Below are positions 2 to 62,395 of a DNA stretch of 64,000 bases, one piece after another; the stretch's first letter is position 1, and every line of letters starts with the position of its first letter. This stretch comes from an uncultured Acidobacteriota bacterium (GTDB lineage: Bacteria; Actinomycetota; Acidimicrobiia; Spongiisociales; ZC4RG35). The stretch spans positions 98,798 through 162,797 of the forward strand of contig CAVRHE010000011.1 of NCBI GenBank assembly GCA_963720925.1, given 5' to 3'. Made by a program: the position numbers and the translations under genes. Below the pieces are notes generated by a model that had not been told where the DNA came from, made no database searches, and worked only from the letters and a program-made list of their open reading frames with translations.

Positions 2-433
2 CTTGCCTCTCTGGAGTGGGTCCTGGAGTCGACCGAGGCCAGGATCAGGGAGCATCTCGCCGAGTCCGGCGATCCCGCCACGGCAATCTCCAAGGTGGTG
101 GATGCGGTGTGGATCGGCCCGGAGGCGAATCACGACTTCTTCCGGTTCTATCTCGACGGTGTCGAGCACGAGGCGCGCTCGCCGGAGTTCGACGAGTTCG
201 CCGACCGGGCCAGGTCGATCATGAACAGCTTCTATCAGGAGGTCATCGTCGCCGGGGTGGATGCCGGCGTGCTCGACGTCGAGGACCCCACGGTGGCCGC
301 GATCCAGATGCGGGCGGTGATCGAGGGCACCTTCCTCCAATGGCTCCAGACCAGCGACTGGCGCACCAACCACGGGGAGTACAAGGAGCACTGCCGGCGG
401 GCCTTGCTTCGCGTCCTCGGGGCATCGCACTGA
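2..433 (+). CDS. TetR/AcrR-family transcriptional regulator, C-terminal ligand-binding part. It is partial because the 5' end lies upstream of the window.
   Basis: Frame 2 is open from position 2 to the stop at 431-433. Translation (LASLEWVLESTEARIREHLAESGDP...AVWIGPEANHDFFRFYLDGVEHE...) looks like a TetR C-terminal domain. No HTH is visible, so the N-terminus is outside the window. Confidence 0.5.
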   Translation, partial: LASLEWVLESTEARIREHLAESGDPATAISKVVDAVWIGPEANHDFFRFYLDGVEHEARSPEFDEFADRARSIMNSFYQEVIVAGVDAGVLDVEDPTVAAIQMRAVIEGTFLQWLQTSDWRTNHGEYKEHCRRALLRVLGASH

Positions 434-557
434 CCCAATCCACGATCTTCCCCGCTGCGAACCAACCCCAATGGAAGCAGTGGCCGCCGTCCGTCTTCAC
501 ACCGTGCGCAGGGGTGTGGGTAGCCTCGCTCGCTCCTGCTCGATCCGTCTGACACGC

Positions 558-1106
558 ATGTCAACAACACCCCCGCTGGACAGCCTCATGACACGGGTCG
601 CCCGGGGCGATGCCGAGGCGTTCTCCGAGCTCTACGACCAGACGTCGTCGATGGTCTACGGGTTGGCCCTTCGCGTGGTCCGCTCCGAGGCAATGGCCGA
701 GGAGGTGACCCAGGAGGTGTTTCTCCAGGTATGGCGTCAAGCATCAGGGTTCGACGCGCAGCGCGGCTCGGTCAAGTCATGGATGGCCACGTTGGCTCAC
801 CGCCGGGCAGTCGACGTCGTGCGCCGATCTCAGAGCGCCCGGGATCGGGAGCTGAAGGTGCCGGCGGATGGGCCGTCGGCCGATGTCGCCGAGATGGCGA
901 TCCTCGACGACGAGCGAGATCGGGTGCGTGCGGCCCTCGGCTCATTGACCGACTTACAGTTTCAGGTGATTGAGATGGCCTACTTCGGGGGCCTCACCTA
1001 CCGGGAGGTGGCCGAGCGGTTGGACACTCCGCTGGCAACGGTGAAGACACGGATCCGGGATGGGCTGACCCGTCTCCGATCTGCTTTGGGTGAAAACGAT
1101 GGATGA
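558..1106 (+). CDS. sigK: ECF RNA polymerase sigma factor, SigK-like
   Basis: ATG at 558. Sigma-70 region 2 (VYGLALRVVRSEAMAEEVTQEVFLQVWRQASGFD) and region 4 (QFQVIEMAYFGGLTYREVAERLDTPLATVKTRIRDGLTRLR) are present. It is collinear with mycobacterial SigK and is followed directly by an RskA-like gene. Confidence 0.85.
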   Translation: MSTTPPLDSLMTRVARGDAEAFSELYDQTSSMVYGLALRVVRSEAMAEEVTQEVFLQVWRQASGFDAQRGSVKSWMATLAHRRAVDVVRRSQSARDRELKVPADGPSADVAEMAILDDERDRVRAALGSLTDLQFQVIEMAYFGGLTYREVAERLDTPLATVKTRIRDGLTRLRSALGENDG

Positions 1107-1776
1107 CATGCACGATCTCGCAGCGGCCTATGCCGTGGACGCCCTCGACGACGAGGAACGAGCCGCGTACGAGGCACATCTCGCCGGTTGCCCCGAATGC
1201 CGCGAGGAGCTGGCCCGGCTCTCCGAAGCCACGGCTTCCCTGGCCGAAACTGTGGCGGTGACGCCGCCGCCAGAGCTCAAGGAGCGCGTCATGACGGCCA
1301 TCGCCGCCGAGGAGCCCGCCGATGTGATCCCGCTGGACGGTCGTCGTCGCTCCGCCCTCGGGTGGGGCCTGGTTGCGGTGGCTGCTTCGGTCCTCGTGGT
1401 CTCGGTGGGGCTGCTGGTGTCGAACGACGCCGGCCAGGGCGGAGCCGTCGCTGCCGTGCTCGAGGCTCCCGACGCGGTCGAAGTCGATCTCGACTCGGAC
1501 GTTGGTGGCGCCCGCTTCGTGTATTCGGAGTCACTTGGCCAGGGGGTGTTCACCGGTTCGGAACTCGATCTCCCCGAAGGGAATCGGGTCTACGAGCTGT
1601 GGCTGATCGACGAGGAGGGCCCGACCGCTGCCGGCGCCTTCCGACCGGAATCGCCAGAGGAGGCAACCGTCCTGGTCGAGGGCATCGAACCCGGTCTCAC
1701 CCTGGCCATGACCGAGGAGCCCGAGCCCGGTCTGGCGGAGCCCACCGGCGAGGTCCTGCTCAGCGCCGAGATCTAA
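1099..1776 (+). CDS. rskA: Anti-sigma-K factor RskA-like. It has an N-terminal anti-sigma domain with a zinc-finger-like H-x3-C-x2-C motif and one TM helix.
   Basis: The start overlaps the sigK stop by 8 nt. Motif AYAVDALDDEERAAYEAHLAGCPECREELARL is present. A TM segment (WGLVAVAASVLVVSVGLLV) is followed by an extracytoplasmic domain. Confidence 0.8.
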   Translation: MDDMHDLAAAYAVDALDDEERAAYEAHLAGCPECREELARLSEATASLAETVAVTPPPELKERVMTAIAAEEPADVIPLDGRRRSALGWGLVAVAASVLVVSVGLLVSNDAGQGGAVAAVLEAPDAVEVDLDSDVGGARFVYSESLGQGVFTGSELDLPEGNRVYELWLIDEEGPTAAGAFRPESPEEATVLVEGIEPGLTLAMTEEPEPGLAEPTGEVLLSAEI

Positions 1777-1797
1777 GTCACCGCTACCTTGAGGTCG

Positions 1798-3254
1798 ATG
1801 ACCAAGGTCGATCCCCATGTCTTCGTGATCTTTGGCGGCACAGGAGACCTTGCCCAGCGCAAGCTGATCCCGTCCCTATATCGGTTGATCAGGGACGAGG
1901 GGGCCGGCGACCATTGCGTGGTGCTCGGAGTGTCGCGCCGCGGCGGTCGGAGACGCCGCTTACCGGGAATGGGCGATTGAGGCACTCGTCGCCAGCGGGC
2001 TCGACGGCGAAGAGGTCGAGCAATGGTGCCGGCGCAATCTGCACCATCAGGCGCTCGGCGACGATGAATCCGGTTACGTCGCACTCCGGGAGCGCATCGA
2101 GACCATCGAGGCCGAGAGGGGCATTCCCGCAAATCGGGTCTTCTATATGGCTATCCCTCCGGGGGCGTTTGCTCCGACCATCCAGGGTCTCGGCAGCTCA
2201 GGGCTCAACCGGGGCCCAGGTTGGGTTCGGGTGGTCGTGGAGAAGCCATTCGGCACCGATCTCGAGTCGGCCCAGGACCCTCAACGAGCTCTTGCTCTCA
2301 CATTTCGAGGAGGCCCAGATCTACCGGATCGACCATTACCTGGGCAAGGCGACGGTTCAGAACCTGCTCACTTTCCGGTTCACCAACCCCATGTTCGAAC
2401 GCCTGTGGAACCGAGATCGGGTCAGCCGCGTCGAGATCACCGTGGCCGAAGACCTGGGCATAGGGGGTCGTGCCGGCTATTACGAGCGGGCGGGGGTGGT
2501 GCGGGACATGGTGCAGAACCATCTCACCCAGCTGCTCGCCCTGGTGGCGATGGAGCCCCCCAATGTCTTCGACGCCGACCGGATCCGCGACGAGAAGGTG
2601 AAAGCCGTGACAGCGGTGGCACCCATCGACGTGGCCGATGTCGTTTACGGGAGGTACGAGGCGGGTTGGCGGGACGGCAAGGCGGTGCCCGGATATCTCG
2701 AGGAAGAGGGCGTCGGCGCAGACTCGACCACACCGACATTTGTCGGGCTGAGGCTCTACGTCGACACCTGGCGCTGGCAAGGGATCCCGTTCCTGCTCAG
2801 GACGGGGAAGAGGCTGCCGGAGCGATCGACACACATCGCGGTGACCTTTCGGGAGCCGGCCCTCTGCGTGTTCCACGGACGTCGCGACGACTGCCTCCAC
2901 GAGCCCGATGTCCTCCTCATCATCCTCGAGCCCGACGAGGGATTCTCCTTGCGCTTCAATGTCAAGGCGCCCCATGAAGACACTGCGATCGATCCTCAGA
3001 CGCTGCATTTCCGATACTCAGATGTGTATGGGCCGCTTCCCGACGCCTATCAGACGCTGATTCTGGACATCCTCGAGGGTGACCAGACACTGTTTGTCAG
3101 GGCGGACGAAGTCGAGGCATCATGGCGTCTCTACGATCCGCTGCTCGAGCACCTGCCCAAGCTGATCGGCTACGAGGCAGGGACATGGGGCCCGCCCGAG
3201 ATGGATCAGGGCGTGGCCCTGGGCGGCGAGCATTGGATGCACCGCAAGGGGTGA
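1798..3254 (+). pseudogene. zwf: Glucose-6-phosphate 1-dehydrogenase (zwf) interrupted by two frameshifts, near 1945 and near 2285.
   Basis: Three consecutive frames read as the N-terminal NADP site (HVFVIFGGTGDLAQRKLIPSLYRL), then YREWAIEALVASG...RVVVEKPFGTDLESAQ, then LNELLLSHFEEAQIYRIDHYLGK...RYSDVYGPLPDAYQTLILD. Together they make one collinear G6PD. No opcA or pgl follows. Confidence 0.8.
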
Positions 3255-3266
3255 CGTCCAGGCACG

Positions 3267-3956
3267 TCACGCGGTGCGCAAAGTGATCGTTGCCATCGGA
3301 TTCAGTTCGAATTCGACAGTCACCCCCGGAAAGAGATCGATCGGAGGCACCACCGAGCCGCAGATGACGACATCGCCTGCCCTCATCTGCTCACCATGGT
3401 CGGCCAGTAGATCGGCCAGATGAGAGACCACCTCGATCACGCCGCCGGCGAGATCCTCCAGGCGGTTCGTGCGGGCTTGCTCCCGGCCATCCAACCTCAC
3501 CCGCGCCTCCAGACCAGTGAGATCGGCGCCGGCGCGACCCGAGTCGGACGGGCCGAGGACGACTCCTCGGTGAAAGATGTTCCCCACCAGGACTTCGTGC
3601 ACGTTTTCAGGTGGAGGGTCGATGTCGGCCAGCTCGATGGCAGGCCCGATGGCTGAGATCGCAGCCCGGGTCCCGTCGTGGCCGCTCCCCGGCGGGAGAT
3701 CGGACCCCAGATAGGCCGCAATCTCGGGCTCGGCCACCGGACGGGGCCAACCAACAACGTCGACTTCGGCGCCATCATCGAGGAGCGTGGCGTCGGTCAT
3801 GAACCCGATCAAGGGGCCGTCGATCCTGAATCGCTCCCGCCAAACCGGGGCGCCGAAGCCCGCCTTCCAACCTATTGGCCGGTACCCCTGAGAGATGAGG
3901 TCACTGCGCAACTCGAGCTGGCCCGTCAGACCGCTGGTCATCGCCGATTGGCTCAT
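3267..3956 (-). CDS. 2-keto-4-pentenoate hydratase / fumarylacetoacetate-hydrolase-fold hydratase (MhpD/HpcG-like)
   Basis: Intact ORF (MSQSAMTSGLTGQLELRSDLISQGYRPIGWKAGFGAP...ELNPMATITLRTA), about 230 aa, with the typical hydratase/decarboxylase family signature. It is the last gene of a minus-strand operon. Confidence 0.65.
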   Translation of the reverse strand: MSQSAMTSGLTGQLELRSDLISQGYRPIGWKAGFGAPVWRERFRIDGPLIGFMTDATLLDDGAEVDVVGWPRPVAEPEIAAYLGSDLPPGSGHDGTRAAISAIGPAIELADIDPPPENVHEVLVGNIFHRGVVLGPSDSGRAGADLTGLEARVRLDGREQARTNRLEDLAGGVIEVVSHLADLLADHGEQMRAGDVVICGSVVPPIDLFPGVTVEFELNPMATITLRTA

Positions 3957-4347
3957 CCCGGCAGCTCGTATCCGGCCGCATCGAGCGAGCCCGCCCCACT
4001 CCAACCCCAAACCAGTGTCACTTCCTCCTCGCCGGTGTTGTCGAATCCGTGCCAGAGGCCCCGTCTGGTGAACAGGACGTCTCCTTCGCCGGCAGGCTGG
4101 TCCTCGTCGTCGGTGTAGATCATTCCGTGGCCGGAGAGGACGATGAGGAACTCGTCGGCATTGGGGTGACGGTGCCGATCGTGCCGGGCTCCCGGCGGAG
4201 GACGGTCCAGCCGAGGAGGAGGTCGTCGGTGCCTGCCTTGGCCGCGTCGACGAGGAACTGCACCTTCATGTCGACCCAGCCCTCGTCCTCGCGCAGCCCA
4301 CCTTCGACCGGCACGTCGTGACGGTTGATCCGAAAGCGGCCGGTCAT
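3953..4347 (-). pseudogene. Cupin-domain protein with one frameshift near 4190.
   Basis: The N-terminal part (MTGRFRINRHDVPVEGGLREDEGWVDMKVQFLVDAAKAGTDDLLLGWTV) is in one frame. The C-terminal cupin core (HPNADEFLIVLSGHGMIYTDDEDQPAGEGDVLFTRRGLWHGFDN) is in another. Its ATG overlaps the upstream stop as ATGA. Confidence 0.55.
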
Positions 4348-5228
4348 TCGTGTCCTCCCAGTCGTCGATAGACATCGAAAACGGTGACAAAGTCGCGATT
4401 GCTCAAGCCGAGACCGTGGCAAGCGTTGAGCATCTCGTTCGCCGCAGCGGCGAGGGGCACGGGACTGCCCTGGCGCCGCCCCAAGTCGAGGGCGAGCAAC
4501 ATGTCCTTCTGCTGCAGGGTGACATTTGCCAAGTGGTTTGTCCGGCATGTTGCCCTCCAGGATGAATGGGCCCCTGTAGCCCATCACCGGTGATGCGACA
4601 ACGCTCTTGAGCATCGCGTCGACCGCGACGGCGCGGTCCACGCCTCCCTTCTCGGCCAACGCGACGGCCTCGCTGAAAGCCACCATCTCCACGATCAGAC
4701 AGAGGTTGATCGCCACCTTCATCTGGACGGCCATGCCGCTTGCTCCCGATGTAGGTGACATTCGGCCCGATCGCCTCCAGAACCGGGAGCACCTTCTCGA
4801 ATGCGGCGCGGTCACCGCCGACCATCACCGAAGCCTTGCCCTGCTCGAGCGAAACGGGGCTGCCCGACAGCGGTGCATCGAGCATCGTCCGTCCCGCCTC
4901 GGAATAGACAGGTGGCGATTTGTCGCGACGCATCGGGGTCGATCGTGCTCATGTCGGCGTAGATGCCATCCTGGCCGAGACCTGACAAGACGCCATCTTC
5001 CCCGATGGCGACTGACTCCACTGCCGTGGCATCGGTCACGATGGAGAGGACCACCTCGGCCGCCTCGGCCACCTGGCGGGGAGTGTCGGCCCATCCCATG
5101 CCTAGATCGCGGAGGGAATCGGCCTTCCCCGCGGTTCGGTTCCAGCCCGTGACATCGTGCCCGGCGGAGAGGAGTCGGGGAACGATGCCCTGGCCCATGT
5201 CGCCAAGGCCGATGAAGCCAACCCTCAC
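4344..5228 (-). pseudogene. 3-hydroxyisobutyrate dehydrogenase / 6-phosphogluconate-dehydrogenase-like NAD(P)-binding oxidoreductase. It is split over four frames, so about three frameshifts.
   Basis: The N-terminal Rossmann motif (MRVGFIGLGDMGQGIVPRLLSAGHDV) is followed by middle segments (YADMSTIDPDAS / AEAGRTMLDAPLSGSPVSLEQGKASVMVGGDRAAFEKVLPVLEAIGPNVTYIG / AVQMKVAINLCLIVEMVAFSEAVALAEKGG). The C-terminus reads MANVTLQQKDMLLALDLGRRQGSPVPLAAAANEM...RRLGGHE in yet another frame. Confidence 0.7.
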
Positions 5229-5320
5229 TCGGTCCTCCGGAGTCGATCGTCGAGGAAATCGAGTTTAAGGGGCGGTTTCCCGAGGAATACCTATCCGGGA
5301 TCGCTGGTTGGCGGAGCGCA

Positions 5321-24612: not shown

Positions 24613-25400
24613 CCTCTGGATCAAACGGTGAAGCGATCAGGGCCGAGGGGATCGGGAAGACGTACGGGCCAGTCGTTGCACTGCGTGACATCAACATCCG
24701 ACCTGGCCAAAGGCGAAGTGCTCGGGCTGATCGGAGACAACGGTGCCGGGCAAGTCGACCCTGATCAAGATCCTCACCGGTTTCACCCAGCCCGATCAAG
24801 GGCAGATCTTCATCTATGGGGAGGAGATGAAGCTCCGTTCCGTTTCCCACGCACGGGAACTCGGGATCGAGACGGTCTACCAGGACCTTGCCTTGGTCAA
24901 CCAACTACCCGTGTACGCCAACATGAGCCTGAACAAGGAGGCGGTGCACCGCCCGATCCCCTTCCTCGACAAGAAAGAGATGCGGGAGCTGGCTCGGACC
25001 CATCTTGGCGGACATGGGGGTCCGCATCCCCTCGGTCGACACCGAGGTCGGCTTTCTCTCCGGGGGCCAGCGTCAAGCCGTGGCCATCGCCCGGGCCGTG
25101 TACTCCGATGCCAAGGTGATCCTGCTCGATGAGCCGCTGGCGGCGATGGGGGCCAAGGAGAGCGCCATCATCATCGACCTGATCAAGGGTCTGCGGGAGA
25201 AGGGCGAGGTCTCGATCATCCTCATCGCCCACAACTTCGCCCAGGTCGTTGAGATGTGCGACCGGGTCAATCTGGTTCAGCACGGCCGTATCACTTTCGA
25301 CACCCCCGTGAGCGAGACCTCGGTTCAAGGAGCTGACCGATCTGGTCTCTGCGGAGTATCGGACCCGGGGAATCGGCTGAGTTCTCAGCTGAGGGCGTGA
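24609..25400 (+). pseudogene. ABC transporter ATP-binding protein of the second sugar transporter, split over four frames (about three frameshifts).
   Basis: Segments MTSGSNGEAIRAEGIGKTYGPVVALRDINI / LAKGEVLGLIGDNGAG / KSTLIKILTGFTQPDQGQIFIYGEE... / LSGGQRQAVAIARAVYSDAKVILLDEPLAAMG...IILIAHNF together make one collinear ABC domain. Confidence 0.7.
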
Positions 25401-38614: not shown

Positions 38615-40559
38615 CCGCTGAACTGATCCGTTGGGCAGTTGTCCTCGACCGAGTACTCCTCGCCCGAGCGCCGGTAGGAATACAGGCAGTCAGCCGCGCC
38701 GACCTGGACCTCGAGAGTGAAGACGTCTTCCTCCCAGTCGTACGAACCCTCCCCGGTGAGGGTCAGCCCGTCCATGAAGGCGCATTCCTCGAAGATGAAA
38801 CCGTCGGTCTCGTCCTGGGCGGTGAAGGTGATCACCCCACCCTGGTTGCAACCCACCGGCATGTCGCTGACGGTGTCCCACCAGTAGTACTCGGGCATGT
38901 AGAAGATCTCGAATTCGACCGAGTCGAACATGGTCTCTGCGCTGTCGAACTCATCCACGGTGAGGGGGAGCAGCGAGATGTAGTAACCGACGACGTCTCC
39001 CTCGCATTCGGACTCCTCCGGTGCGGTGCCTTCCACGATGAAGCTGGTTACGGCGTCGTCCGGGCATTCGTTGCCCCGTCCGAAGATGACATGAGGCCCG
39101 CCTTGCTTGCTGATCAAATACCCTTCCTCGAGACGTTCAGCGACGTCTACTCCCTGCTGATGCGGAGTGGCCGGATCGGCGGTCGCGCCCAGCACCACCG
39201 TGGGTACGCCGGGGGCGGCAAGAGGCGCCGGACGGGTCGGATCGTCGCTTGCCGTGGGCCAGAAAGCACAGGGCAGATCACCAAAGAACACGGCTCCCAG
39301 ACGGGCGGGGTCCATATCGGCGCCGGCGGTGAAGAACGCCTGCGCGGTCTCTTCCGGCGTCGACCCCGGGTAGTGGTAATCGAGACATTCGACCGCGTAG
39401 TAGATGGCATCCGAATAGGTCGGGTCTTCGATCGCTGTCTCGGTCTCCGCGTCGATCCCGACGTTCAGGTAGAGGAGCCTGAGAAGGGGCACCAGGTCAC
39501 CCCGTCCACTTTGGGCAGCCAGCGCTCGAAGGAACATCATCCGATCGTCCTCCGAGTACATCTGGCCGCTGGCCACGACCTCGAGGTCCCCGAGGCCGAA
39601 GGTGCGCTCCTCGAACCCGCCGGTGGCCAAGGGGTACGGAGCGGTCAGCGGGCCTTCGACCAACAGGGCGAGCAGCTGGTCGTACGCCTGGTCGGGGGAC
39701 ACGCCGAGATCCGCTGCGCAGAACTCGTCCTCGGCGCAGTAGTCCAGCGTCGACTGGAGCGTGGCCCCGAAGGCCGTTGCCTGCTCCTGAAAGAAGTCGA
39801 GGCCCTCCAGGGTGAGATCGACCGTTCCGTCGAGGACCATTCGGGCGACGCGTTCGCTGGTGGGCGTCCGCATAGGTCTGGGAAAGCTGGGTGCCGTAGC
39901 TCTCCCCGTACAGGACGATCTGGTCATACCCAAAGGTCTCGCGGAACACCTCGAGATCCTCGGCTGCCTGGTCGGTGCCCAGGTAGGGGAGAATCGCCGG
40001 ATTGCCCATCTCGGAGACACAGCCCTCCGAGAAGGTGGATGCGGCCGCAGTCAGCGCTTCCTGATCGAAGCCGAGACCCGTCGTCGCGTCCACCCGGTAG
40101 TAGTCCGCCGCCGCCTGCGGGCAGCTCAGGCCACCCGACATCGCGACCCCGCGCTGGTCGAAGAAGACGATGTCGTACGACTCCGGTATCGCCGGGTCCA
40201 GGGCATCGGTATAAGAATCGGCGGCCGCGATGCCCGGAGCTGCCGGGGCCTCCGGTTGCGGTGACGAACGCCCCGAGGCTGTCCCCGGTGGCGGGGAGCA
40301 CGGCGAAGGTCACCGGGATGGTTCTCTCGTCGGCTGGATCGAAGTGATTCATCGGCATGTCGAGCGTCACACAGGTGAACACCGAGTCGGGGCAGAGGCT
40401 GGCGTCTAGATCCTCCATGAGTTGACCGGTGCTCGGGCGCTCCGTCGTGGTGGTCGGGCCGGCAGTGGTCGTTTGCGGCGGTTCTGTGGTCCGGTTCCCC
40501 CCGTCGGTGGTGCACGCTGCGAGCAGCAACAACACCCCTACCTGACACCACCTCCGCAT
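38611..40559 (-). pseudogene. Secreted S33-family alpha/beta-hydrolase (tripeptidyl aminopeptidase-like) lipoprotein with a Cys-rich C-terminal extension. It has two frameshifts, near 40260 and near 39850.
   Basis: Lipoprotein signal (VGVLLLLAACTT). FVTATGGPGSS, then in a second frame GIAAADSYTDALDPAIPESYDIVFFDQRG...with the nucleophile elbow YGESYGTQL. The third frame carries the rest plus about 130 aa containing 8 Cys. Confidence 0.7.
38621..38649 (+). repeat. 29-bp direct repeat, copy 2 (AACTGATCCGTTGGGCAGTTGTCCTCGAC). On the minus strand it encodes the last 10 codons of the peptidase gene (VEDNCPTDQF).
   Basis: See copy 1. The two copies bracket the GT4 plus glycosidase-like gene pair. 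Confidence 0.8.
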
Positions 40560-40584
40560 TGGCGGCATCGTACGCCGCATATTC

Positions 40585-42055
40585 GTGGCGTCGGGCATAC
40601 TCCGGCGGTTGCCACAGCTCCTCGCTCGGTCCCTCGTCTTCATCACATCTGCCGCGGTTCTAATCCTGGAGATCCTGGCCGGGCGGCTGCTCGCGCCCTA
40701 CCTGGGGGTGAGCCTCGAGGTATTCACCGGCATCATCGGTGTGATCCTTGCCGGGATTTCCGTCGGGGCGTGGGCCGGCGGGCGGGCGGCGGATCGTGGA
40801 GACCCCCGTCGCCTCATCGGGCCTCTCCTCGTCGCCGGCGGCCTGACTGCGGTGGCGTCGCCACTGCTGGTCGACCTGGCCGGCCCGGCGGCCTCGACCG
40901 GGCCTGTTTCGATCGTCGGCCTCAGCCTCATCGGGTTCTTCGCCCCGGCAGCGATCCTGTCGGCGATTCCACCCATCGTGGTGAAGATCAGATTGGCCTC
41001 GTTGCAGGAGACGGGTTCTGTGGTCGGGACGTACTCCGCCATTGGGACCGCGGGAGCCATCTTCGGCACTTTCGTGACCGGGTTCGTGCTGATCGCCGCC
41101 TTTCCCACGAGGCCGATCGTGATCGTGGTGGGATTTGTGCTCGTGCTGCTCGGGGTGGCGGTATGGGTCGGGCGCAGCGCCTGGACCGTGACCGGCTCAC
41201 ATTGTTTCGCTGCTCCTCCTCAGCGGTTTGACCCTCGGATTCGACGGCCCCTGCCAGTACGAGACCAGCTATCACTGCGCCGAAGTAGTGGCCGACACCG
41301 GGCGACCCTCGGGAAGGCTCCTGGTCTTGGACCGCGGCCACAACAGTTACGTCGATCTCGACGACCCCACTCATCTCGAGTTTCGCTACATACGGGTGAT
41401 GGCCGACCTGATAGACGTGGAGATGCCGCCGGGCCCTCTAAACGTCGTTTCGATCGGTGGCGGAGGGTTCACGTTGCCCGGCTACCTGGCCGCCACGCGG
41501 CCAGGCACCGACCACCGCGTCCTCGAGATCGACGCGTCCTTGGTGGAGATCGGCCGACGCCACCTCGGGTTCGAAGACGAAGCCGAGGTGATCATCGACG
41601 ACGCCCGGAGATCGATCACGCAGATTGCTCCTGGCTCGGTCGATGTCGCCGTGGGCGACGCCTTCACCGGCCTCACCGTTCCCTGGCATCTGACCACGGT
41701 GGAGTTCGTCGAGATGATCGGTGACACCCTGGCTCCCGGCGGCTTGTACACGGTCAATGTGATCGACCGGCCCGAGGCGAGGTTCGCCCGAGCGGAGGCG
41801 GCGACTCTCAGCGAGGTCTTCGACCATGTGGCGGTGTTCGCTCCAGAGGGCTACTTCACCGGCGCCCGCGGCGGCAACTACGTCCTCGTCGGGTCGGATG
41901 ACCCGATCGACATGGATCGCGTCCGGGAGACGCTCCTTTCCAGAGGGGGTGTCGAAATCGGTCTGGCCGGCGATGAGCTGGCCCGATTCATCGACGACGC
42001 CCGTCCCTTGACCGACGACTTCGCCCCGGTCGACCAGATGCTTAGCGGTCTCTGA
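40585..42055 (+). pseudogene. Fused MFS-like membrane domain / spermidine-synthase-like methyltransferase, with one frameshift near 41195.
   Basis: The N-terminal half has about 7 TM helices (…AILSAIPPIVVKIRLA…). After the shift it reads SLLLLSGLTLGFDGPCQYETSYHCAEVVADTGRPSGRLLVLDRGHNSYVDLDDPTHLEFRYI...VVSIGGGGFTLPGYL...VGDAF, which is the SpeE-like AdoMet fold. Confidence 0.7.
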
Positions 42056-42725: not shown

Positions 42726-44211
42726 TCAGGACTGACGCGCCCGCCCGGAATCGGGATCGATGATCAAGGACGACACGTCGACGGCTTGGAATGCCGATCC
42801 GGGGATCTCCTTCAACTCTCGCAGCATGTCGTTGTCCCATCTGGGATCGGGGCTGCCGGATATGTACCAGGACGAGCCGTTGTCGGCGAGGATGATCCCG
42901 TACTCCTTGAAGGCCCGCAGAATCACCTGCACCTGTGCGGAGAAACCCGAGATGTCGAATTGGGACGACAGGCGAAACCTCTGCCCCATGGGCGGCAAAG
43001 CGACGCTGGACGAGTCGGAGGCGTCGTGTCGGGCGGGCCAGACGTGCGCCGACTCTCGTCAGTGGCGCTGTGAATCTGATCGCGTGATCGATGTGCCCGG
43101 AGAGGACTTCGTCGTAACGGACGAGGCCGGGGAAGATCGGCAGTCCGGCGGCATCTGCTGAGGTCCAGCCGTCCGGGCGTAATCGAGATGAATCGAGTTG
43201 ATATCGGGCACCGGACGCGGCTTGCCACGACGATCCAAGCCCTGGGTGGGCATCGAACAATTCGAAGAGCTCGCATCGATAACGGTCGACGACGATGACA
43301 TGACGATCACCCGACGAATCGGCCCCCCCTTCGATCGGGGCGCCGGCAGGGATCGGGAATGGTCCAGGGTCGGACTCGGCGCCGTACGCGGTATACGTGA
43401 CGGGCACGGCTGGGGTGCCGGCCTGCGCTTCGATGTAGGGGATGCCAATGGGGCTATTGGACCCCGGCGGCCACACACCTGAGCCAAAGTCGGGGTGGAG
43501 ATGGGCCGAGGCCCCGATCGATGACACGTATTGAGCCGATCGTGCATGCACCGGCAGACCATCGATCCGGGTGTTCCAGATGTCGTCCGCAGGCAGGGTG
43601 GGGCATCGTGCCGGTGGTCGGTTTGGGGTGAGGTGGGTGGCTCGGGTGAGGAGGGTGGCCATCTGGTCTCGTCTGATCGGGTCGTCGGGGCAGAACCGGG
43701 TGTTGGCCGGCGGGTTGCAGCCGATGGTCACTCCGGCGGCAGCGATCTTTTGGATTGCTTGTTCGAAGAGGTGGCCGTTGTCGTCGGTGAACCGGTCGTG
43801 GTTGGACACCGGATAGTTGAAGGCTCTGGCCAGCATGGCGGCCATCTCTCCCCGGGTCATGTTCCGTTCCGGGCAGAACCGGTTGTTGGCCGGGGGGTTG
43901 CAGCCCTGGGTTATCCCGGCGGCGCGGAGACGGTTGATCCCAGCTTCGAATGTGCTGGCTTCGTCGTCGACGAAATAGTCGTTGGGGGTGGAGCCGAGAT
44001 CGAGGGCTCGGGCCAGGAACACTGCCATTTGGCCACGGGTGACGGTCCGATCTGGACAGAAGCGATCATTGACCGGCGGGTTGCACCCACGGGTGATGCC
44101 CTCGGCGGCGATGGCCTCGATGCCCCCCTCGTGGACATTCCCATCGTCATCGACAAACGAGCCTCCAGGAGGAAGCACCGCCAGGAACACCGCCAACAAC
44201 AGCGCATGCAC
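42726..44211 (-). pseudogene. Secreted protein with three SLH-like 'GCNPP' repeats and an uncharacterised C-terminal domain of about 330 aa. It has one frameshift near 43052.
   Basis: Signal-like N-terminus (VHALLLAVFLAVL). Three repeats of the form FVDDDGNVHEGGIEAIAAEGITRGCNPPVNDRFCPDRTVTRGQMAVFLARAL. The C-terminal domain continues in another frame (…SAHVWPARHDASDSSSVALPPMGQRFRLSSQFDISGFSAQVQVILRAFKEYGIILADNGSSWYISG…). Confidence 0.55.
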
Positions 44212-44256
44212 CGCTAGTGAATCGACTCCTTCGCCGCCCGACTCAAGGGGTACGGC

Positions 44257-56647: not shown

Positions 56648-57673
56648 TTAGCGGTGGAGGACCTGTCGTCTCGGCTTGGGGTCGTGCGCCGAGCCGCTCC
56701 TCGGGCCGCGGCCCCGTGAGGCGACCTGGATGAGATCGCCGAGCATCGCGCTCGCCGTTGGCTGACCCCCGGCCCCGGGCCCGGTGAAGAGGAGACGTCC
56801 GACCGACGGCCCCTCGATGAAGATGGCGTTGGTCACCCCATTGACCCCGGCCAGCGGATGATCGGCGGGGAGGCTCATCGGCTTGACCTTGGCTTCGACC
56901 CGACCATCGATTCCCCGCTGCGCCGAGCCGATCAGCTTGATCACCTCGCCGTTCTCGTTTGCGGAGGCCACGTCCTCGGCGCTCACGCCCTCGATCCCTT
57001 CACACTCGACCTCCCAGGGAGCGACGCGCTCGCCGAAGGCGAGGCTGGCGAGGATCGATGTCTTGAATGCCGCGTCGCGGCCTGACACGTCATCCGCGGG
57101 GTCGGTCTCGGCGTAACCAAGACGCTGAGCTTCGGCCAGGGCATCGTCGTAACTGCGGCCCTCCTTGGCCATCGCGGTCAGGATGTAGTTGGTGGTCCCA
57201 TTCACGATTCCGCTCACCACATCGATGTCCTCGCCGGCGAGACTCTCAGCCAGAGGGCGAATCACGGGGATCCCGCCGCCCACAGCTGCCTCATACATGA
57301 CAGAGACGCCTGCTCGTTTTGCCGCCTCCATGATCTCCTGACCTCTGGTGGCGATCAGTTCCTTGTTGGCGGTGACCACGGGTTTGCCCGACCGCAGGGC
57401 GGCCAGAACCAGGGTGCCCGCCGGCTCCAGGCCACCGATGACCTCGACGATCACGTCGATCGAGGGGTCGGTGACGACCGATAACGCGTCGTCGGTGATC
57501 CGATCGGACTTGATGTCGAAGGGACGCTCCTTGGCCAGGTCCCTCACCGCGACACGACGAACCTCGAGATCCACCCCCGACTTGAGCCGGATGGCGTCCC
57601 TATCGGCGAGCAGCCTGCTGACCAGGGTGCCGCCGACGGTCCCGGCGCCGAGCACGCCGACCCGGACAGTCAT
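56648..57673 (-). CDS. hom: Homoserine dehydrogenase, a short form of 341 aa without a C-terminal ACT domain.
   Basis: MTVRVGVLGAGTVGGTLVSRL...KPVVTANKELIA...GIVNGTTNYILT...the catalytic domain ends at the convergent GH gene, leaving no room for an ACT domain. Confidence 0.85.
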   Translation of the reverse strand: MTVRVGVLGAGTVGGTLVSRLLADRDAIRLKSGVDLEVRRVAVRDLAKERPFDIKSDRITDDALSVVTDPSIDVIVEVIGGLEPAGTLVLAALRSGKPVVTANKELIATRGQEIMEAAKRAGVSVMYEAAVGGGIPVIRPLAESLAGEDIDVVSGIVNGTTNYILTAMAKEGRSYDDALAEAQRLGYAETDPADDVSGRDAAFKTSILASLAFGERVAPWEVECEGIEGVSAEDVASANENGEVIKLIGSAQRGIDGRVEAKVKPMSLPADHPLAGVNGVTNAIFIEGPSVGRLLFTGPGAGGQPTASAMLGDLIQVASRGRGPRSGSAHDPKPRRQVLHR

Positions 57674-57981
57674 GGCGTCCGCCTCGATTCTCTCTGCTCT
57701 CTCATTTGACCTTCGCTTCTCGGATGGCCGCCCCGGGAGTGGGGAATCAAAAAGATCCGCTCCCTGCCGGTGCGGATCTCGTGTTTCGTGTGGTTGTGGC
57801 GCTTGCTTACACGGACGAGTCGCACGGCCTCTCGGTCGTGGTCGTCATACCGGTCGTGAGCCAAGCACTCATGTATAAGGCAAGGTATCCGGGATCGTGG
57901 ATCAAGTCAATGCCGCGCCCCTCCGCCACAGGATCTTGCACAAATCCGGCGGAATGCAATAGCCTTGTGATTGACGAAGCG

Positions 57982-58063
57982 CTCATCTTGAGCGGTTGAG
58001 GGATCAGGCCCGATGAAACCGCGGCAACCGGCGCAAGCACGGTGCCAATGCCTGGATCGATGA
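57982..58063 (+). ncRNA. SAM-I (S-box) riboswitch in the 5' leader of metH
   Basis: CUCAUCUUGAGCGGUUGAGGGAUCAGGCCCGAUGAAACCGCGGCAACCGGCGCAAGCACGGUGCCAAUGCCUGGAUCGAUGAG. It matches the S-box consensus almost base for base (P1 CUCAUC/GAUGAG, GAGGGA, GGCCCGAUGAAACC, GGCAACC, GGUGCCAAUNCCUG). A GC-rich hairpin (GCCGGAGCC-auu-GGCUCCCGGC, 58066-58087) follows as the expression platform. Confidence 0.85.
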
Positions 58064-58128
58064 GTTGCCGGAGCCATTGGCTCCCGGCGCTCTTCAAGCG
58101 TTTCGAGAAGAAACAGAGGAGTAGACCG

Positions 58129-61100
58129 GTGAGCGAGGCTCGGCCGAGCGACTACATACATTTCGTGCAATCCGGTCTCGTCATCTTCGACGGGGCTACC
58201 GGCACCAACCTTCAGACCGTCGGGCTCACCGCCGACGACTTCGGCGGCCCGTCCCTCGAGGGATGCAACGAGTTGTTGAACCTGCGTCGTCCCGACGTGA
58301 TCAGAGACCTGCATCGCTCTTTCCTGGAAGTCGGGGTGGACGTGGTGGAGACCAACACCTTCGGAGCCTTCGCCGTCCCGCTGGGGGAGTACGGGCTCGA
58401 GGACCAGTCCTACGAGATCGCGGCGTCAGGGGCGACATTGGCAAGAGAGGTCGTGGACGAGTTCGTCAAGGCGGATGGACGGCCCCGGTATGTTGCCGGG
58501 TCGATCGGTCCCGGAACAAAATTCGCCACCCTCGGCCAGATCTCATATCAAGACCTGGCCGCGGCCTACGAAGTGGAGTCTTCCGGGCTCATCGACGGAG
58601 GCGCCGACCTCCTGATCATCGAGACCCAGTTCGACTTGCTCGGGGCCAAAGCCGCCATCGACGGGGCCCGCAGGGCGATGAAAGCCGCCGGTGTGGAGAT
58701 CCCTCTCCAGGTCCAGGTCACCATCGAGCTCACCGGGCGGATGCTGCCCGGCACCGAGATCGGCGCCGCCCTGACCACCCTCGAAGCGCTGCGACCCGAT
58801 GTGATCGGCCTCAACTGCGCCACCGGGCCCGCGGAGATGTACGAGCCGCTGCGCCACCTCGCCCGCCACTCGACGGTGCCGGTGGCGGCGATACCCAACG
58901 CGGGACTTCCTCATGTGGAGGACGGGCAGATGGCCTATGACCTGTCACCTGACGACCTGGCCCATCACCTCGGACAGTTCGTCACCGAGATGGGGATCGG
59001 CGTGATCGGGGGCTGCTGCGGCACGAGCCCGGCGCATCTGGCCGCAGTTGTGGAGAGGACCCGCCCCCTCTCGCTCATAGACGCGCAAGCCAGAGACGAT
59101 CCCTTCGGCTGCGTCGATCTACAGCCAGGTTCCATTTGACCAGGACACGTCGTTCTTGATCATCGGGGAACGGGCCAACGCCAACGGGTCACGCGCCTTC
59201 AAGGAGTCCCTGCTCGCCGACGACCTCGATGGATGCGTGTCGATCGGCCAGGATCAGGTGAAGGAGGGGGCTCATCTCGTCGACCTCTGTGTCGATTATG
59301 TCGGGCGGGACGGAGTGGCCGACATGCTCAAGCTGGCCGCTGCTTTCGCCACCGATGTTGCCGCCCCCGTCGTGCTCGACTCAACCGAGCCCGAGGTCAT
59401 GGAGGCCGGTCTCGAACGGCTCGGCGGCCGCAGTTTGCTCAACAGCGCCAACCTCGAGGACGGCGAAGAGCCGGGCTCGCGTCTCGACCGGGTTTTCGGG
59501 CTGGCTCACAAGCACGGGGCCGGAGTCATCTGTTTGCTCATCGACGAGGAGGGGCAGGCCCGCACCCTGGAATGGAAGCTGCGGATCGCACATCGCATCC
59601 ACGACCTCGCCGTCGAACGCTATGGCTTGCGTTCCGAGGACTTGATATTCGATGCCCTCACCTTCCCTCTCACCACGGGTGGCGACGACCTGCGCAAGGA
59701 CGCGATGATCACCCTCGACGCCATCCGGCAGATCAAGACCGAGCTGCCCGGGGTCAGGACCGTGCTCGGCGTGTCCAACGTCTCCTTCGGTCTGAACCCG
59801 GCGGCACGGCGCATCCTGAATTCTGTGTTCCTCCACGAAGCGGTCGAGGCCGGTCTCGACGCGGCAATTGTCCACGCCGGGAAGATCGAGCCGCTCAACC
59901 GGATCGACCCTGAGCAGCGCCAGGTCTGCCTCGATCTCATCTACGACAGGCGTGCCGAGGGTTACGACCCATTGGAAAAGCTCCTCGAGCTGTTCGCCGG
60001 GGTGGAGACGGTGGAGCGGTCGGAGAGCGATTACGAGGGCATGGCGGTGGGAGAGCGGCTCGCCAAGCGCATCATCGACGGTGACCAGAAGAACGTCATC
60101 GCAGACCTCGACGTCGCCTTGGGGGAGGGCTCCGAGCCCCTCGACATCATCAACAACTACCTCCTCGATGGGATGAGGACGGTCGGCGACCTCTTCGCCA
60201 GTGGTGAGATGCAACTCCCCTTCGTCCTCAAGTCGGCAGAGACCATGAAGAAGGCCGTCGCCTATCTCGAGCCGATGATGGAGAAGGCCGAAGGCTCGAC
60301 CCGGGGCCGGATCGTGCTCGCCACGGTGTCAGGCGACGTCCACGACATCGGCAAGAACCTGGTCGACATCATCCTGACCAACAACGGGTACGAGGTGCAC
60401 AATCTCGGCATCAAGATCGGCATCTCGGAGATGATCGCCAAGTTCGAGGAGACCTCAGCTGACGCGATCGGGATGAGCGGGCTGTTGGTGAAGAGCACCC
60501 TGATCATGCGCGACAACCTCGAGGAGTTGGAGCGACGGGGTCTGGGCAAGGTCCCCGTGCTCCTTGGTGGGGCCGCCTTGACCAGGAACTACGTCGAGGC
60601 CGATCTCCGATCTCGATACCAGGGCCCGCTCTACTACGGCAAGAACGCATTCGCCGGGCTCGAGGCAATGGGGAAGATCGTGGCCGGCGAGCCCGCTCCC
60701 GAGCCCATCGCGGCCAGGCAATATCACGAGCGGGAGACCGCCGGGGGTGTCATCCCGGCCCGGTCGCCCGACGTCAAGCGGGACAACCAGATCTTCGTGC
60801 CGCCCTTCACCGGGTCCCGGGTGATCCGGGGGGTCTCGATCGACGAGATCGTCCCCTATCTCAATCTGACCGCCCTCTTCCGCAACCAGTGGCAATACCG
60901 GCCGGAGAAGGGGGAACGGGACCTCGATTTCAAGGAACGGCTCACCCCGCTGCTTCGGGAGCAGATCGCTCTGGCCCGTCATGACGACCTGCTCAACCCC
61001 AAGGTGGTCTACGGATACTTCCCCGCGAACGGCGACGGCGACGACCTCGTGATCTGGGACGACGTCAGCGCTCAAAGGGAGCTGACCAGGTTCAGCTTTC

Positions 61101-61616
61101 CCCGCCAGCGGGAGGACCCGTACCTGTGCATCGCCGACTTCTTCCGACCGGTCGGCGAAGAGGTCGACTACGCCGCCTTTCACATCGTCACGATGGGCGA
61201 CAAGGTCTCCGACCGCACCAAGGATCTGTTCGAGCAGGACCGTTACACCGACTACCTGCTCCTTCATGGTCTCGGTGTGGAGATGGCCGAGGCCCTCGCC
61301 GAGCACTGGCATCATCGGATCCGGGAGGAGTGGGGGTTCGTCGATGAGGACGGACCGTCCCTCCTCGGGCTGTTCCGGCAGCAGTATCGGGGTGGACGCT
61401 TCTCATGGGGATACCCGGCGTGTCCCGACCTCGAGGACAACGAGAAGGTGGCCTATCTACTCGGGCGCCGACCGGATCGGGATCACGGTGGGCGAGGAGA
61501 CCTTCTATCAGTACCAGCCGGAACAGACGACCTCGGCCATCATCTGCCATCACCCTCAGGCGAAATATTTCGTTGCCCGCAAGCCCAGGGAGGACCGAGA
61601 TGCTGACAAAGGCTGA
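58129..61616 (+). pseudogene. metH: Cobalamin-dependent methionine synthase with two frameshifts, near 59120 and near 61465.
   Basis: GTG start after AGAGGAG. The Hcy-binding domain is in frame 1 (…GGCCGTSPAHL…). After the shift it reads QVPFDQDTSFLIIGERANANGS...with a pterin-binding domain, B12-binding domain (GDVHDIGKNLV) and AdoMet-activation domain in frame 2. The last 50 aa (ADRIGITVGEETFYQYQPEQTTSAIICHHPQAKYF...) are in frame 0. Confidence 0.85.
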
Positions 61617-62395
61617 GGGCTGGTTGCGGATTGCCGAGATCAACCCTCCCGAGCTCCCCAACCTCCAGCATCGGAGCCTGTCGCCCGGCTTGGAGCCATG
61701 TGCTGGTGACCGACAATGTCTTCGGGCGGATCCGTGTCTCGCCGTATGCGTTCTCGGCCCGCATCACCCATGACACGCCCGACGTGCACCCGACGGTGGT
61801 GGTGTCGACCAGGGACCGGAACATCCTGGCCATCGAATCCGAGGTGAGAGGTGCCCTCGGCAACGGAGTCGATTCGTTTCTCGTCGTCATCGGCGACACG
61901 GTGCCCCACGTCGACCATCTGGCGCACCACTACGAGATCGTCGAGCACCTCAGGGAGCTCCAGGAGAATTTGCCTGATTTCGAGGTGGGCATGCCCTCCC
62001 GATTCCGCGAGTGGCAATTCCGGCGCAGGATCGAGCTGGGGGCCCAGTTCTTCGTCACCGGGCCGATCCTCGACCCCGAGGTGATGGAGCGGCACCTCGG
62101 TCTGCTCAACCTGAAGCCGGAAGACCCTCCCGTCTTCGTGATGGTCATACCTCCCTTCAGCTTGTCCTGGGTGGAGCAGATGGAGGCCATCGGGTCGGTC
62201 CCTTCTACCGACGGCATGAAACAGCGACTTGCCGACCTCAGCCCCGAGGTGGGTCGCAAGCTCGGATGGGAGATGATCTCCGAGGCGGAGAAGCGGGCGA
62301 GGGACGCCGGGGCGGCCGGCGTCATCCTGATGGGGCTGAAATACGAATCGGTGGTTGGTGAGGCGGCGGAGAACTGGCTGAACCGGCGCGATTGA
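61600..62395 (+). pseudogene. metF: Methylenetetrahydrofolate reductase (MetF-like) with one frameshift near 61670. Its ATG overlaps the metH 3' end.
   Basis: MLTKAEGWLRIAEINPP... in one frame, then SHVLVTDNVFGRIRVSPYAFSARITHDTPDVHPTVVVSTRDRNILAIESEV...ELGAQFFVTGPILD in the ORF frame. Confidence 0.65.

Follow-up and report, generated by a model that had tools for sequence, protein, structure and literature searches.

The present analysis concerns a bicistron from a soil bacterium of the Acidimicrobiia, formed by metH (cobalamin-dependent methionine synthase) and a metF-like gene with the fold of methylenetetrahydrofolate reductase (MTHFR), together with the leader that precedes it, in a 64-kb stretch of contig CAVRHE010000011.1 (hereafter the window, to which coordinates refer). 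The leader carries a predicted aptamer of the S-adenosylmethionine (SAM) riboswitch clan, devoid of the P4 helix and followed by a covarying helix that covers the Shine-Dalgarno sequence (SD) of metH. We regard as the probable explanation of the whole region that this operon is placed under feedback control by SAM and that its frameshifts are errors of the sequence. An earlier note on this DNA had recognised a SAM riboswitch ahead of a frameshifted metH-metF operon, and both points were borne out, with an RF00162 match of 67.7 bits and with metH broken twice and the metF-like gene once near 61683. The two enzymes would produce the methyl donor 5-methyl-tetrahydrofolate (5-methyl-THF) and spend it methylating homocysteine, so that SAM would repress the last two steps of the synthesis of its own precursor, a routine end-product feedback on the final steps of methionine synthesis that biologically changes little.

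The Rfam covariance-model check proposed in the earlier note returned RF00162 (SAM-I) at 57980-58066 on the forward strand, above its gathering score of 44.4 bits (E 1.2e-13) and best in its clan (CL00012, of which cmscan retains only the best match). It is the sole Rfam family across the whole window. The comparisons rely on 80 related loci retrieved by a scan of a genome collection with the C-terminal part of MetH, nearly all of them from metagenome-assembled genomes (MAGs) of Acidimicrobiia from soil and sediment, the closest being locus L027. In the 11 relatives scanned, as in the window, the best clan model was RF00162 (68-74 bits) and not RF00634. The aptamer comprises the following elements, with lengths in nucleotides (nt) or base pairs (bp).

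57980..58066, + strand: predicted SAM-binding aptamer of the SAM clan, 87 nt, best match SAM-I (RF00162), without P4; supported by the Rfam match, RNAalifold and the covariance alignment
57981-87/58059-65, + strand: P1, 7 bp; 98.5% of cells paired, one pair with a change on both sides
57992-97/58017-22, + strand: P2a, with UA/CG/UG covariation
57998-99 and 58012-16, + strand: asymmetric P2 internal loop, GA/GAUGA, in agreement with the model consensus
58000-02/58009-11, + strand: P2b, GGG/CCC, invariant
58005-08 with 58051-54, + strand: complementarity of pseudoknot PK-1, CAGG with CCUG (J3/4)
58023-32/58037-46, + strand: P3 with a GCAA loop; 98.6% paired

RNAalifold applied to 49 distinct leaders recovered P1 (7 bp), P2a, P2b and P3, and in the covariance alignment 91-100% of the cells of these aptamer helices are paired, and P1, P2a and P3 show covariation. 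Among relatives, P3 differs in its distal part both in sequence and in length, with compensatory changes. Relatives with a CUAGG loop preserve the PK-1 complementarity through CCUGG, the 3' side of this putative pseudoknot being invariant and hence devoid of covariation. P4 is a component of the four-helix junction of SAM-I aptamers, and no such helix was found in the window or in any of the 49 distinct relatives, RNAalifold recovering none. Only 12 nt (AAUGCCUGGAUC) separate P3 from the 3' strand of P1, and the P4 of the Rfam model is bypassed by a local end ([1] nt versus [17]). The almost perfect match to the S-box consensus announced in the earlier note was thus not retrieved, P4 being entirely missing and P3 minimal. 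The same note had set beforehand two tests for the element, its bit score and the presence of helices P1 to P4: the score exceeds the threshold, whereas P4 is absent. Judged from its sequence, the most fitting description of the element is that of a SAM-I-type aptamer without P4, which presumably binds SAM.

This aptamer was found upstream of metH in 50 of the 74 evaluable Acidimicrobiia loci, and nowhere else in those loci. It is accompanied by the metF-like gene in 42 evaluable loci and occurs without it in 7 (one with a frameshifted copy); both are lacking in 23, and the metF-like gene is present alone in one. Eleven aptamer-less loci were scanned and contained no Rfam family at all. The control of metH by SAM, considered less usual for Actinobacteria in the earlier note, is consequently the rule in this clade, and SAM-I control of metF and metH is textbook knowledge.

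Downstream of the aptamer, the leader contains an expression platform that ends at the metH start, the GTG at 58129 lying 62 nt past the aptamer end (a distance previously given as 65 nt). The platform comprises the following elements.

58067..58088, + strand: hairpin H1 of 9 bp, capped by an AUU loop and with a single bulged C; 8 of 9 pairs with compensatory changes, 91% of cells paired
58089..58095, + strand: anti-SD GCUCUUC, resembling the P1 5' strand (CGCUCAUC)
58100..58114, + strand: inner hairpin GUUUC/GAAAC, inside the SD-sequestering helix; 93% paired, 3 of 5 pairs with compensatory changes
58116..58122, + strand: metH Shine-Dalgarno sequence GAGGAG(U), 3' strand of the sequestering helix; 7 of 7 pairs changed on both sides

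The SD (GAGGAG, 58116-21) is placed 7 nt before the GTG and is engaged in a covarying helix in which GCUCUUC (58089-95) pairs with GAGGAGU (58116-22). SD and anti-SD change jointly among relatives, as illustrated by CUCUUC:GAGGAG versus CUCAC:GUGAG, and the 3' strand of this helix corresponds to an SD located 5-9 nt from a GUG, UUG or AUG in approximately 40 of 47 distinct leaders. H1 begins 1 nt past the P1 3' strand in the window; all relatives possess this hairpin, although its sequence varies. A covariance model of the whole conformer with P1 closed (aptamer, H1, SD helix and inner hairpin) was searched against all loci; it matched the window and, beyond it, 50 loci and a single 5'-truncated copy, with no match in the 23 loci without aptamer. 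The alignment obtained in this way comprises 48 distinct leaders and has 94.3% of its cells paired, compared with 37-51% in slid controls. RNAalifold based on a MAFFT alignment had missed the platform helices, the hairpin arms being misaligned, and realignment with the covariance model recovered them.

The anti-SD has two alternative partners, the SD on one side, and the P1 3' strand together with the PK-1 strand on the other. In a candidate conformer with P1 open, the J3/4 segment AAUGC (58047-51), the PK-1 strand UGGA and the P1 3' strand GAGU would pair with GCGUU (58098-58102), UUCA and GCUC flanking H1, GCGUU being then engaged with J3/4 rather than in the inner hairpin. Growing transcripts ending at 58104 or 58113, before the SD is made, have this P1-open conformer as their minimum free energy structure, lower than the P1-closed one by 0.5-4.8 kcal/mol, and the transcript extended to 58122, with the SD present, adopts P1, H1 and the sequestered SD as its minimum free energy structure. 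The P1-open pairing is 90% conserved among relatives versus 24-57% when slid, and in one relative (L045) both strands of P1 carry changes that are matched in the anti-SD, the mimic of the P1 5' strand. Equilibrium accessibility of the SD had also been considered as a test of switching; it was dropped since it did not differ between states, and the conformer energies on growing transcripts were used instead.

From the absence of a terminator and the ability of the same anti-SD to pair with the P1 3' strand, we infer a translational OFF switch responding to SAM, a direction and level of control that we hold with moderate confidence. Once SAM is bound, P1 and PK-1 would be locked, leaving GCUCUUC free to pair with the SD (GAGGAGU) around the GUUUC/GAAAC hairpin; the blocked SD would prevent ribosome binding, and metH and the coupled MTHFR-like gene would remain untranslated. 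When SAM is absent, the P1 3' strand, the PK-1 strand and J3/4 would pair with the GCUCUUC stretch and the following GCGUU, extending H1 into a long anti-sequestor stem and leaving the SD free. Several points weigh against this scheme. Since the structural alignment had been fitted to the model, its pair counts favour the modelled structure. The support for the P1-open conformer is one of conserved complementarity, its 5' partners being invariant bases of the core. Equilibrium folding of the full leader pairs the SD both when the aptamer is enforced and when P1 is blocked, and since the SD is paired either way at equilibrium, the decision of the switch would have to be kinetic. Finally, the missing P4 could weaken or alter ligand binding.

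Transcriptional control is the main competing explanation for the platform: H1, or an alternative hairpin CUC..GGCGCU/AGCGUU..GAG, would be a terminator of the actinobacterial type without U-tract, or a Rho-assisted one, forming when P1 is closed. The position of H1 directly after P1, as for the terminators of many SAM-I leaders, and its conservation with compensatory changes agree with such a function, and the SAM-I switches characterised before that of Xanthomonas are all terminator-based (PMC7270179). Moreover, an occluded SD often exposes the mRNA to Rho, so both mechanisms may act. However, no hairpin followed by a U-run was found at any site in 57600-58300, where a consensus scan revealed neither promoter nor terminator, and H1 is followed by GCGCUCUUCAAG instead of a U-run. 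H1 also forms in both predicted conformers and does not separate the two states, the covarying helix that differs between them being the one that covers the SD. A transcriptional switch is therefore considered unlikely, with some residual chance, and translational control is retained as the preferred mechanism.

Two further features were observed around the start of metH. The start region xUG-AGC (Met-Ser, always with an AGC codon) is near-invariant in the window (58129-58135) and in all related leaders. It is complementary to the GCUCA of the P1 5' strand and of the anti-SD, and some predicted folds pair the start with the P1 5' strand, which may represent an additional layer of start-codon occlusion or merely reflect N-terminal conservation. 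In many relatives (leaders L005-L020, L068 and L078), variable inserted sequence of 30-250 nt (or 10-40 codons) separates the conserved SD/GUGAGC start from the point where MetH conservation sets in, corresponding either to a highly variable N-terminus or to a true start located further downstream.

The coding region consists of two genes, with lengths given in amino acids (aa) after removal of the three inserted bases described below.

58129..61616, + strand: metH, cobalamin-dependent methionine synthase, 1161 aa after repair; five Pfam domains over two frames, TIGR02082
61600..62395, + strand: divergent metF-like gene of the MTHFR fold, 264 aa after repair; Pfam MTHFR, predicted fold

The first frame of metH (58129-59139) encodes the full homocysteine S-methyltransferase domain, the second (59081/59156-61606, open from 59081) the pterin-binding, B12-binding cap, B12-binding and activation domains, and the last ~50 codons lie in a third frame. 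With bases 59079 and 61463 removed, the protein reaches 1230.5 bits against TIGR02082 (equivalog cutoff 1010.85), covering positions 5-1181 of the 1182 of the profile. A natural arrangement of metH in two genes was ruled out, given that homology extends upstream of the TTG of the second frame and that every relative has a single open reading frame (ORF).

The metF-like gene has its own SD (GGGAGGA, 61587-93) and starts with the ATG at 61600; as the sequence stands, its ORF spans 61631-62395. In the corrected frame, metH stops at 61614-16 and overlaps it by 17 nt. The earlier note had described translational coupling through an overlapping ATG, and before correction this ATG indeed shares its sequence with a TGA (ATGCTGA); coupling remains probable, with the overlap corrected to 17 nt. 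Of 46 relatives, 45 have the metF-like start 8-20 nt before metH ends, and this conserved overlap, with an SD belonging to the second gene, makes translational coupling plausible.

The name metF, used in the earlier note, received contrasted support from the predicted fold, which is clearly that of MTHFR, and from the sequence profile, which is marginal. The repaired protein matches Pfam MTHFR (PF02219) with 26.2 bits against a cutoff of 24, over positions 46-281 of 287, and 26 of 28 family members show a similarly weak match (best E 4.8e-08). NCBIfam gives a partial match to the bifunctional enzyme of the YitJ type, in its MTHFR half, and searches of the PDB by sequence or profile provided no meaningful match. 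The AlphaFold model of a homolog sharing 97% identity (P0001; pLDDT 82.5, pTM 0.84) retrieved with Foldseek 37 top PDB matches that are all MTHFR/MetF, with TM scores of 0.66-0.74, a probability of 1.00 and 13-17% identity. The name is thus correct at the level of modelled fold and context, for an enzyme that is far from canonical and whose activity is predicted. The family has 1217 matches, its members of 262-265 aa being labelled MTHFR by JGI and often hypothetical by NCBI, and this MTHFR-fold family of more than 1,200 members gains here a functional context. Its sequences (window 61600-62395 and P0001-P0120) share invariant motifs unlike canonical MetF, such as NPPE, VTDNVFGRIR, STRDRNILAIESEVRGA and H-x-DH-x-AHH, and the histidine-rich motif could point to a different cofactor chemistry.

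Another gene of the methionine/threonine pathway, the homoserine dehydrogenase gene hom (56648-57844, - strand), is found upstream of the riboswitch in divergent orientation; its upstream region shares the intergenic segment 57845-57980, in which small indels are found between relatives. The operon is followed by a convergent glyoxalase-like gene and by a YibE/F-like gene.

The frames of the two genes are broken by three single-base insertions which, in nucleotide alignments, are found in no relative.

~59079: insertion 1, in metH, CAT[A]GAC
61463: insertion 2, in metH, CTC[G]GGC
61683-84: insertion 3, in the metF-like gene, GTC[G/C]CCGG

They are also absent from L027, a contig built from short reads that is 94.9% identical in nucleotides over 7.9 kb, and in every relative both parts of MetH lie in one frame and both parts of the metF-like gene are contiguous. 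Deletion of the three bases restores full-length MetH and metF-like proteins with no internal stop. The ratio of non-synonymous to synonymous substitution rates (dN/dS) of metH is 0.07 with L027 and 0.03 with more distant relatives, and that of the metF-like gene 0.06-0.08. Substitutions of the window lineage, polarised with three outgroups, amount to 11 synonymous and 3 non-synonymous upstream of the first break and to 10 synonymous and 4 non-synonymous downstream of it (neutrality P 3e-4 to 6e-3), and the 50 codons past the second break differ from relatives by 12-18 synonymous and no non-synonymous changes (dS 0.5-0.9). A gene dead for long enough to accumulate three indels should hold many neutral, mostly non-synonymous changes, which is not the case here; moreover, unrelated genes of the window are also split, which favours a window-wide cause. 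The insertions are therefore attributed, with high though not full confidence, to sequencing or assembly. The earlier note had reached the same conclusion for at least the metH frameshifts, and it is upheld by the absence of the insertions from relatives, the clean repair, the purifying selection and the other split genes. Its argument, that a riboswitch would be pointless before a pseudogene, did not stand, as a recently inactivated operon would keep its leader and an intact riboswitch alone cannot prove errors.

The alternative is that the frameshifts are real: the strain would have lost metH and the MTHFR-like gene in the recent past, for instance through reliance on metE or on imported methionine, and the riboswitch would be an intact relic. 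Several observations lean that way and count against sequence errors. The three lesions are gathered within 2.6 kb, whereas the 5.9 kb upstream contain no coding indel relative to L027. Downstream of the first break, 4 of 14 changes are non-synonymous in the window lineage versus 1 of 26 in that of L027, and the metF-like gene shows roughly double the dN found between intact relatives; these extra non-synonymous changes fit a noisy sequence, but also a slight relaxation of selection. In addition, the insertion at 59079 is located outside any homopolymer. On the other side, three independent indels should be accompanied by tens of neutral, mostly non-synonymous changes, while the window lineage presents 21 synonymous and 7 non-synonymous ones. 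The 50 codons past the second break are free of amino-acid change, the repaired genes have no in-frame stops or deletions, and split genes are found in the window well outside this pathway. Real loss thus appears decidedly unlikely, and we recommend, in line with sequence errors, that the broken metH and metF of this assembly be treated as such in metabolic reconstructions and not as a pathway loss.

Regarding the other split genes, an ABC-transporter ATPase gene is frameshifted at ~25.0 kb (24731-25400, + strand): positions 23-93 of the ABC_tran profile are found in ORF 24731-25132 and positions 102-137 in ORF 24933-25400, a +1 change consistent with a single-base insertion. A gene resembling that of 3-hydroxyisobutyrate dehydrogenase (4344-5264, - strand) is split into three ORFs, 5264-4812 with NAD_binding_2 (1-111), 4824-4120 with NAD_binding_11 (2-66) and 4583-4344 with NAD_binding_11 (69-121), by two frameshifts that are apparently one deletion and one insertion. 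gltB (1485 aa) and similar large genes of the window are intact. Clear periodicity of the G + C content at third codon positions (GC3) over 1-5 kb was observed at 433-5216, 40050-41192 and 43058-44221, where ORFs are short or fragmented and where a partial FAA_hydrolase match is found (3267-4265, - strand); these stretches probably hold further broken genes. The GC3 frame plot was too coarse for counting frameshifts, and partial Pfam domains on pairs of ORFs were used instead. Most of the suspect overlapping pairs proved to consist of distinct, unbroken genes (luciferase-like/FMN reductase, shikimate kinase/glycosidase and F420H2 reductase/aminotransferase). Elsewhere, metH is split over two frames in L030 (2958-3910) and the metF-like gene is cut to 58 aa in L044 (8459-8635), both from public MAGs with isolate names beginning with MFD, showing that isolated frame breaks recur in public assemblies of this group of Acidimicrobiia.

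Concerning the nature of the aptamer, the place of H1 raises the question of whether this hairpin belongs to a SAM-IV-like fold merely scored best as SAM-I. SAM-IV is described without P4, with a P5 hairpin after P1 and with PK-2 joining the P3 loop and the 3' tail (PMC6890682). The order found here, P3, PK-1 strand, P1 3' strand and hairpin without P4, corresponds to that description, and H1 is always present. Strong complementarity between P3 and the tail exists in a few distant lineages (10 nt in L038, 7 nt in L056 and L068). In the window clade, however, the P3 loop is GCAA and its best run of complementarity to the tail is 3 nt (p ~0.9), the best clan match is SAM-I in the window and in each of the relatives scanned, and the 3' tail is already explained by its pairing with the SD. 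A SAM-IV-like fold is accordingly held to be very unlikely, and the element is kept as SAM-I-type. As an observation of its own, strong complementarity links the tail following H1 to distal P3 in L038 (4773-4937; CGCUGGUGAG with CUCACCAGCG over the 10 nt), L056, L068 and L006, which, from these sequences, could correspond to a lineage-specific PK-2-like contact or to an extra competitor strand.

The weakest explanation, that the frame breaks are decoded by programmed +1 ribosomal frameshifting, takes advantage of all three breaks being +1 in the same direction, but can be dismissed as having a negligible chance, the breaks occurring in no relative, no slippery or stimulatory motif of the generally known kinds being seen at the three sites, and three programmed sites in one operon being to our knowledge unprecedented.

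No description of P4-less SAM-I aptamers was found in the literature that could be searched, and the conserved absence of P4 combined with an SD-sequestering platform is the mildly new aspect of this leader. It might represent, as a tentative proposal that we consider possible more than probable, a fourth peripheral architecture of the SAM-I/SAM-IV clan: a minimal three-way junction with a SAM-I core, a kinked P2 and PK-1, without P4 or PK-2, coupled to a translational platform where the P1 3' strand would be contested by two look-alikes, the P1 5' strand CGCUCAUC and the anti-SD GCUCUUC. Should this leader bind SAM at normal affinity, neither peripheral domain would be needed for the binding pocket of the clan. 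The ~50 natural P4-less SAM-I-type aptamers, with their covarying SD-sequestering platform, offer a compact system that could serve to examine the part played by P4 or PK-2 in folding of the SAM clan.

Among known systems, yitJ, which encodes a fusion of homocysteine methyltransferase and MTHFR, and metF-H2 are the closest in regulated functions. The SAM-I crystal structure 2GIS was based on the metF-H2 leader of Thermoanaerobacter tengcongensis (PMC3064774), and yitJ of B. subtilis serves as the standard SAM-I model (PMC7270179). SAM-I control of MTHFR and homocysteine methylation is an archetype, and the regulatory idea is therefore not new. The window leader shares with them the sequence of the ligand-binding core, P1, P2a/P2b with the internal loop, the PK-1 complementarity and P3, as well as the regulated functions and, as predicted, an OFF logic with switching of the P1 3' strand. 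It differs from them by the absence of P4, with a three-way instead of a four-way junction, by a P3 of only 8-9 bp capped by a tetraloop, by the lack of an intrinsic terminator, control being predicted at the SD, and by the order metH then metF, with a very divergent MTHFR of 264 aa.

In its predicted mode of control, the leader is closer to SAM-I(Xcc) of Xanthomonas campestris, which acts on translation, all SAM-I riboswitches characterised earlier using terminators (PMC7270179). Both have a SAM-I-type aptamer, no Rho-independent terminator and an anti-SD/SD helix that acts mainly on translation, as predicted for the window. In contrast, SAM-I(Xcc) controls metA-metB-hom and not metH-metF, and its platform also binds uncharged initiator tRNA, of which there is no hint in the window. 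With SAM-IV (RF00634), the leader has in common the core of the clan without P4, the hairpin right after the P1 3' strand (H1, 58067-88) and its occurrence in Actinomycetota; unlike SAM-IV, the window clade is devoid of detectable PK-2, its P2 internal loop and core score as SAM-I, and its 3' tail pairs with the SD. The SAM-I/IV variants (RF01725) have a P2 without internal loop (PMC2864571), whereas such a loop is present in the window. As for the second gene, the metF-like protein is predicted to form a (beta/alpha)8 barrel like MetF/MTHFR (PF02219; E. coli 1B5T, T. thermophilus 1V93), with TM scores of 0.70-0.74 to canonical MTHFRs, but shares only 13-17% identity with canonical MetF, is ~30 residues shorter and has a Pfam score barely over the cutoff. 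The flavin-independent mycobacterial Mfr (8BGR) is a weaker match to its model (TM 0.57), and the genomic and regulatory context of the gene fits, as for MetF, a supply of 5-methyl-THF to MetH.

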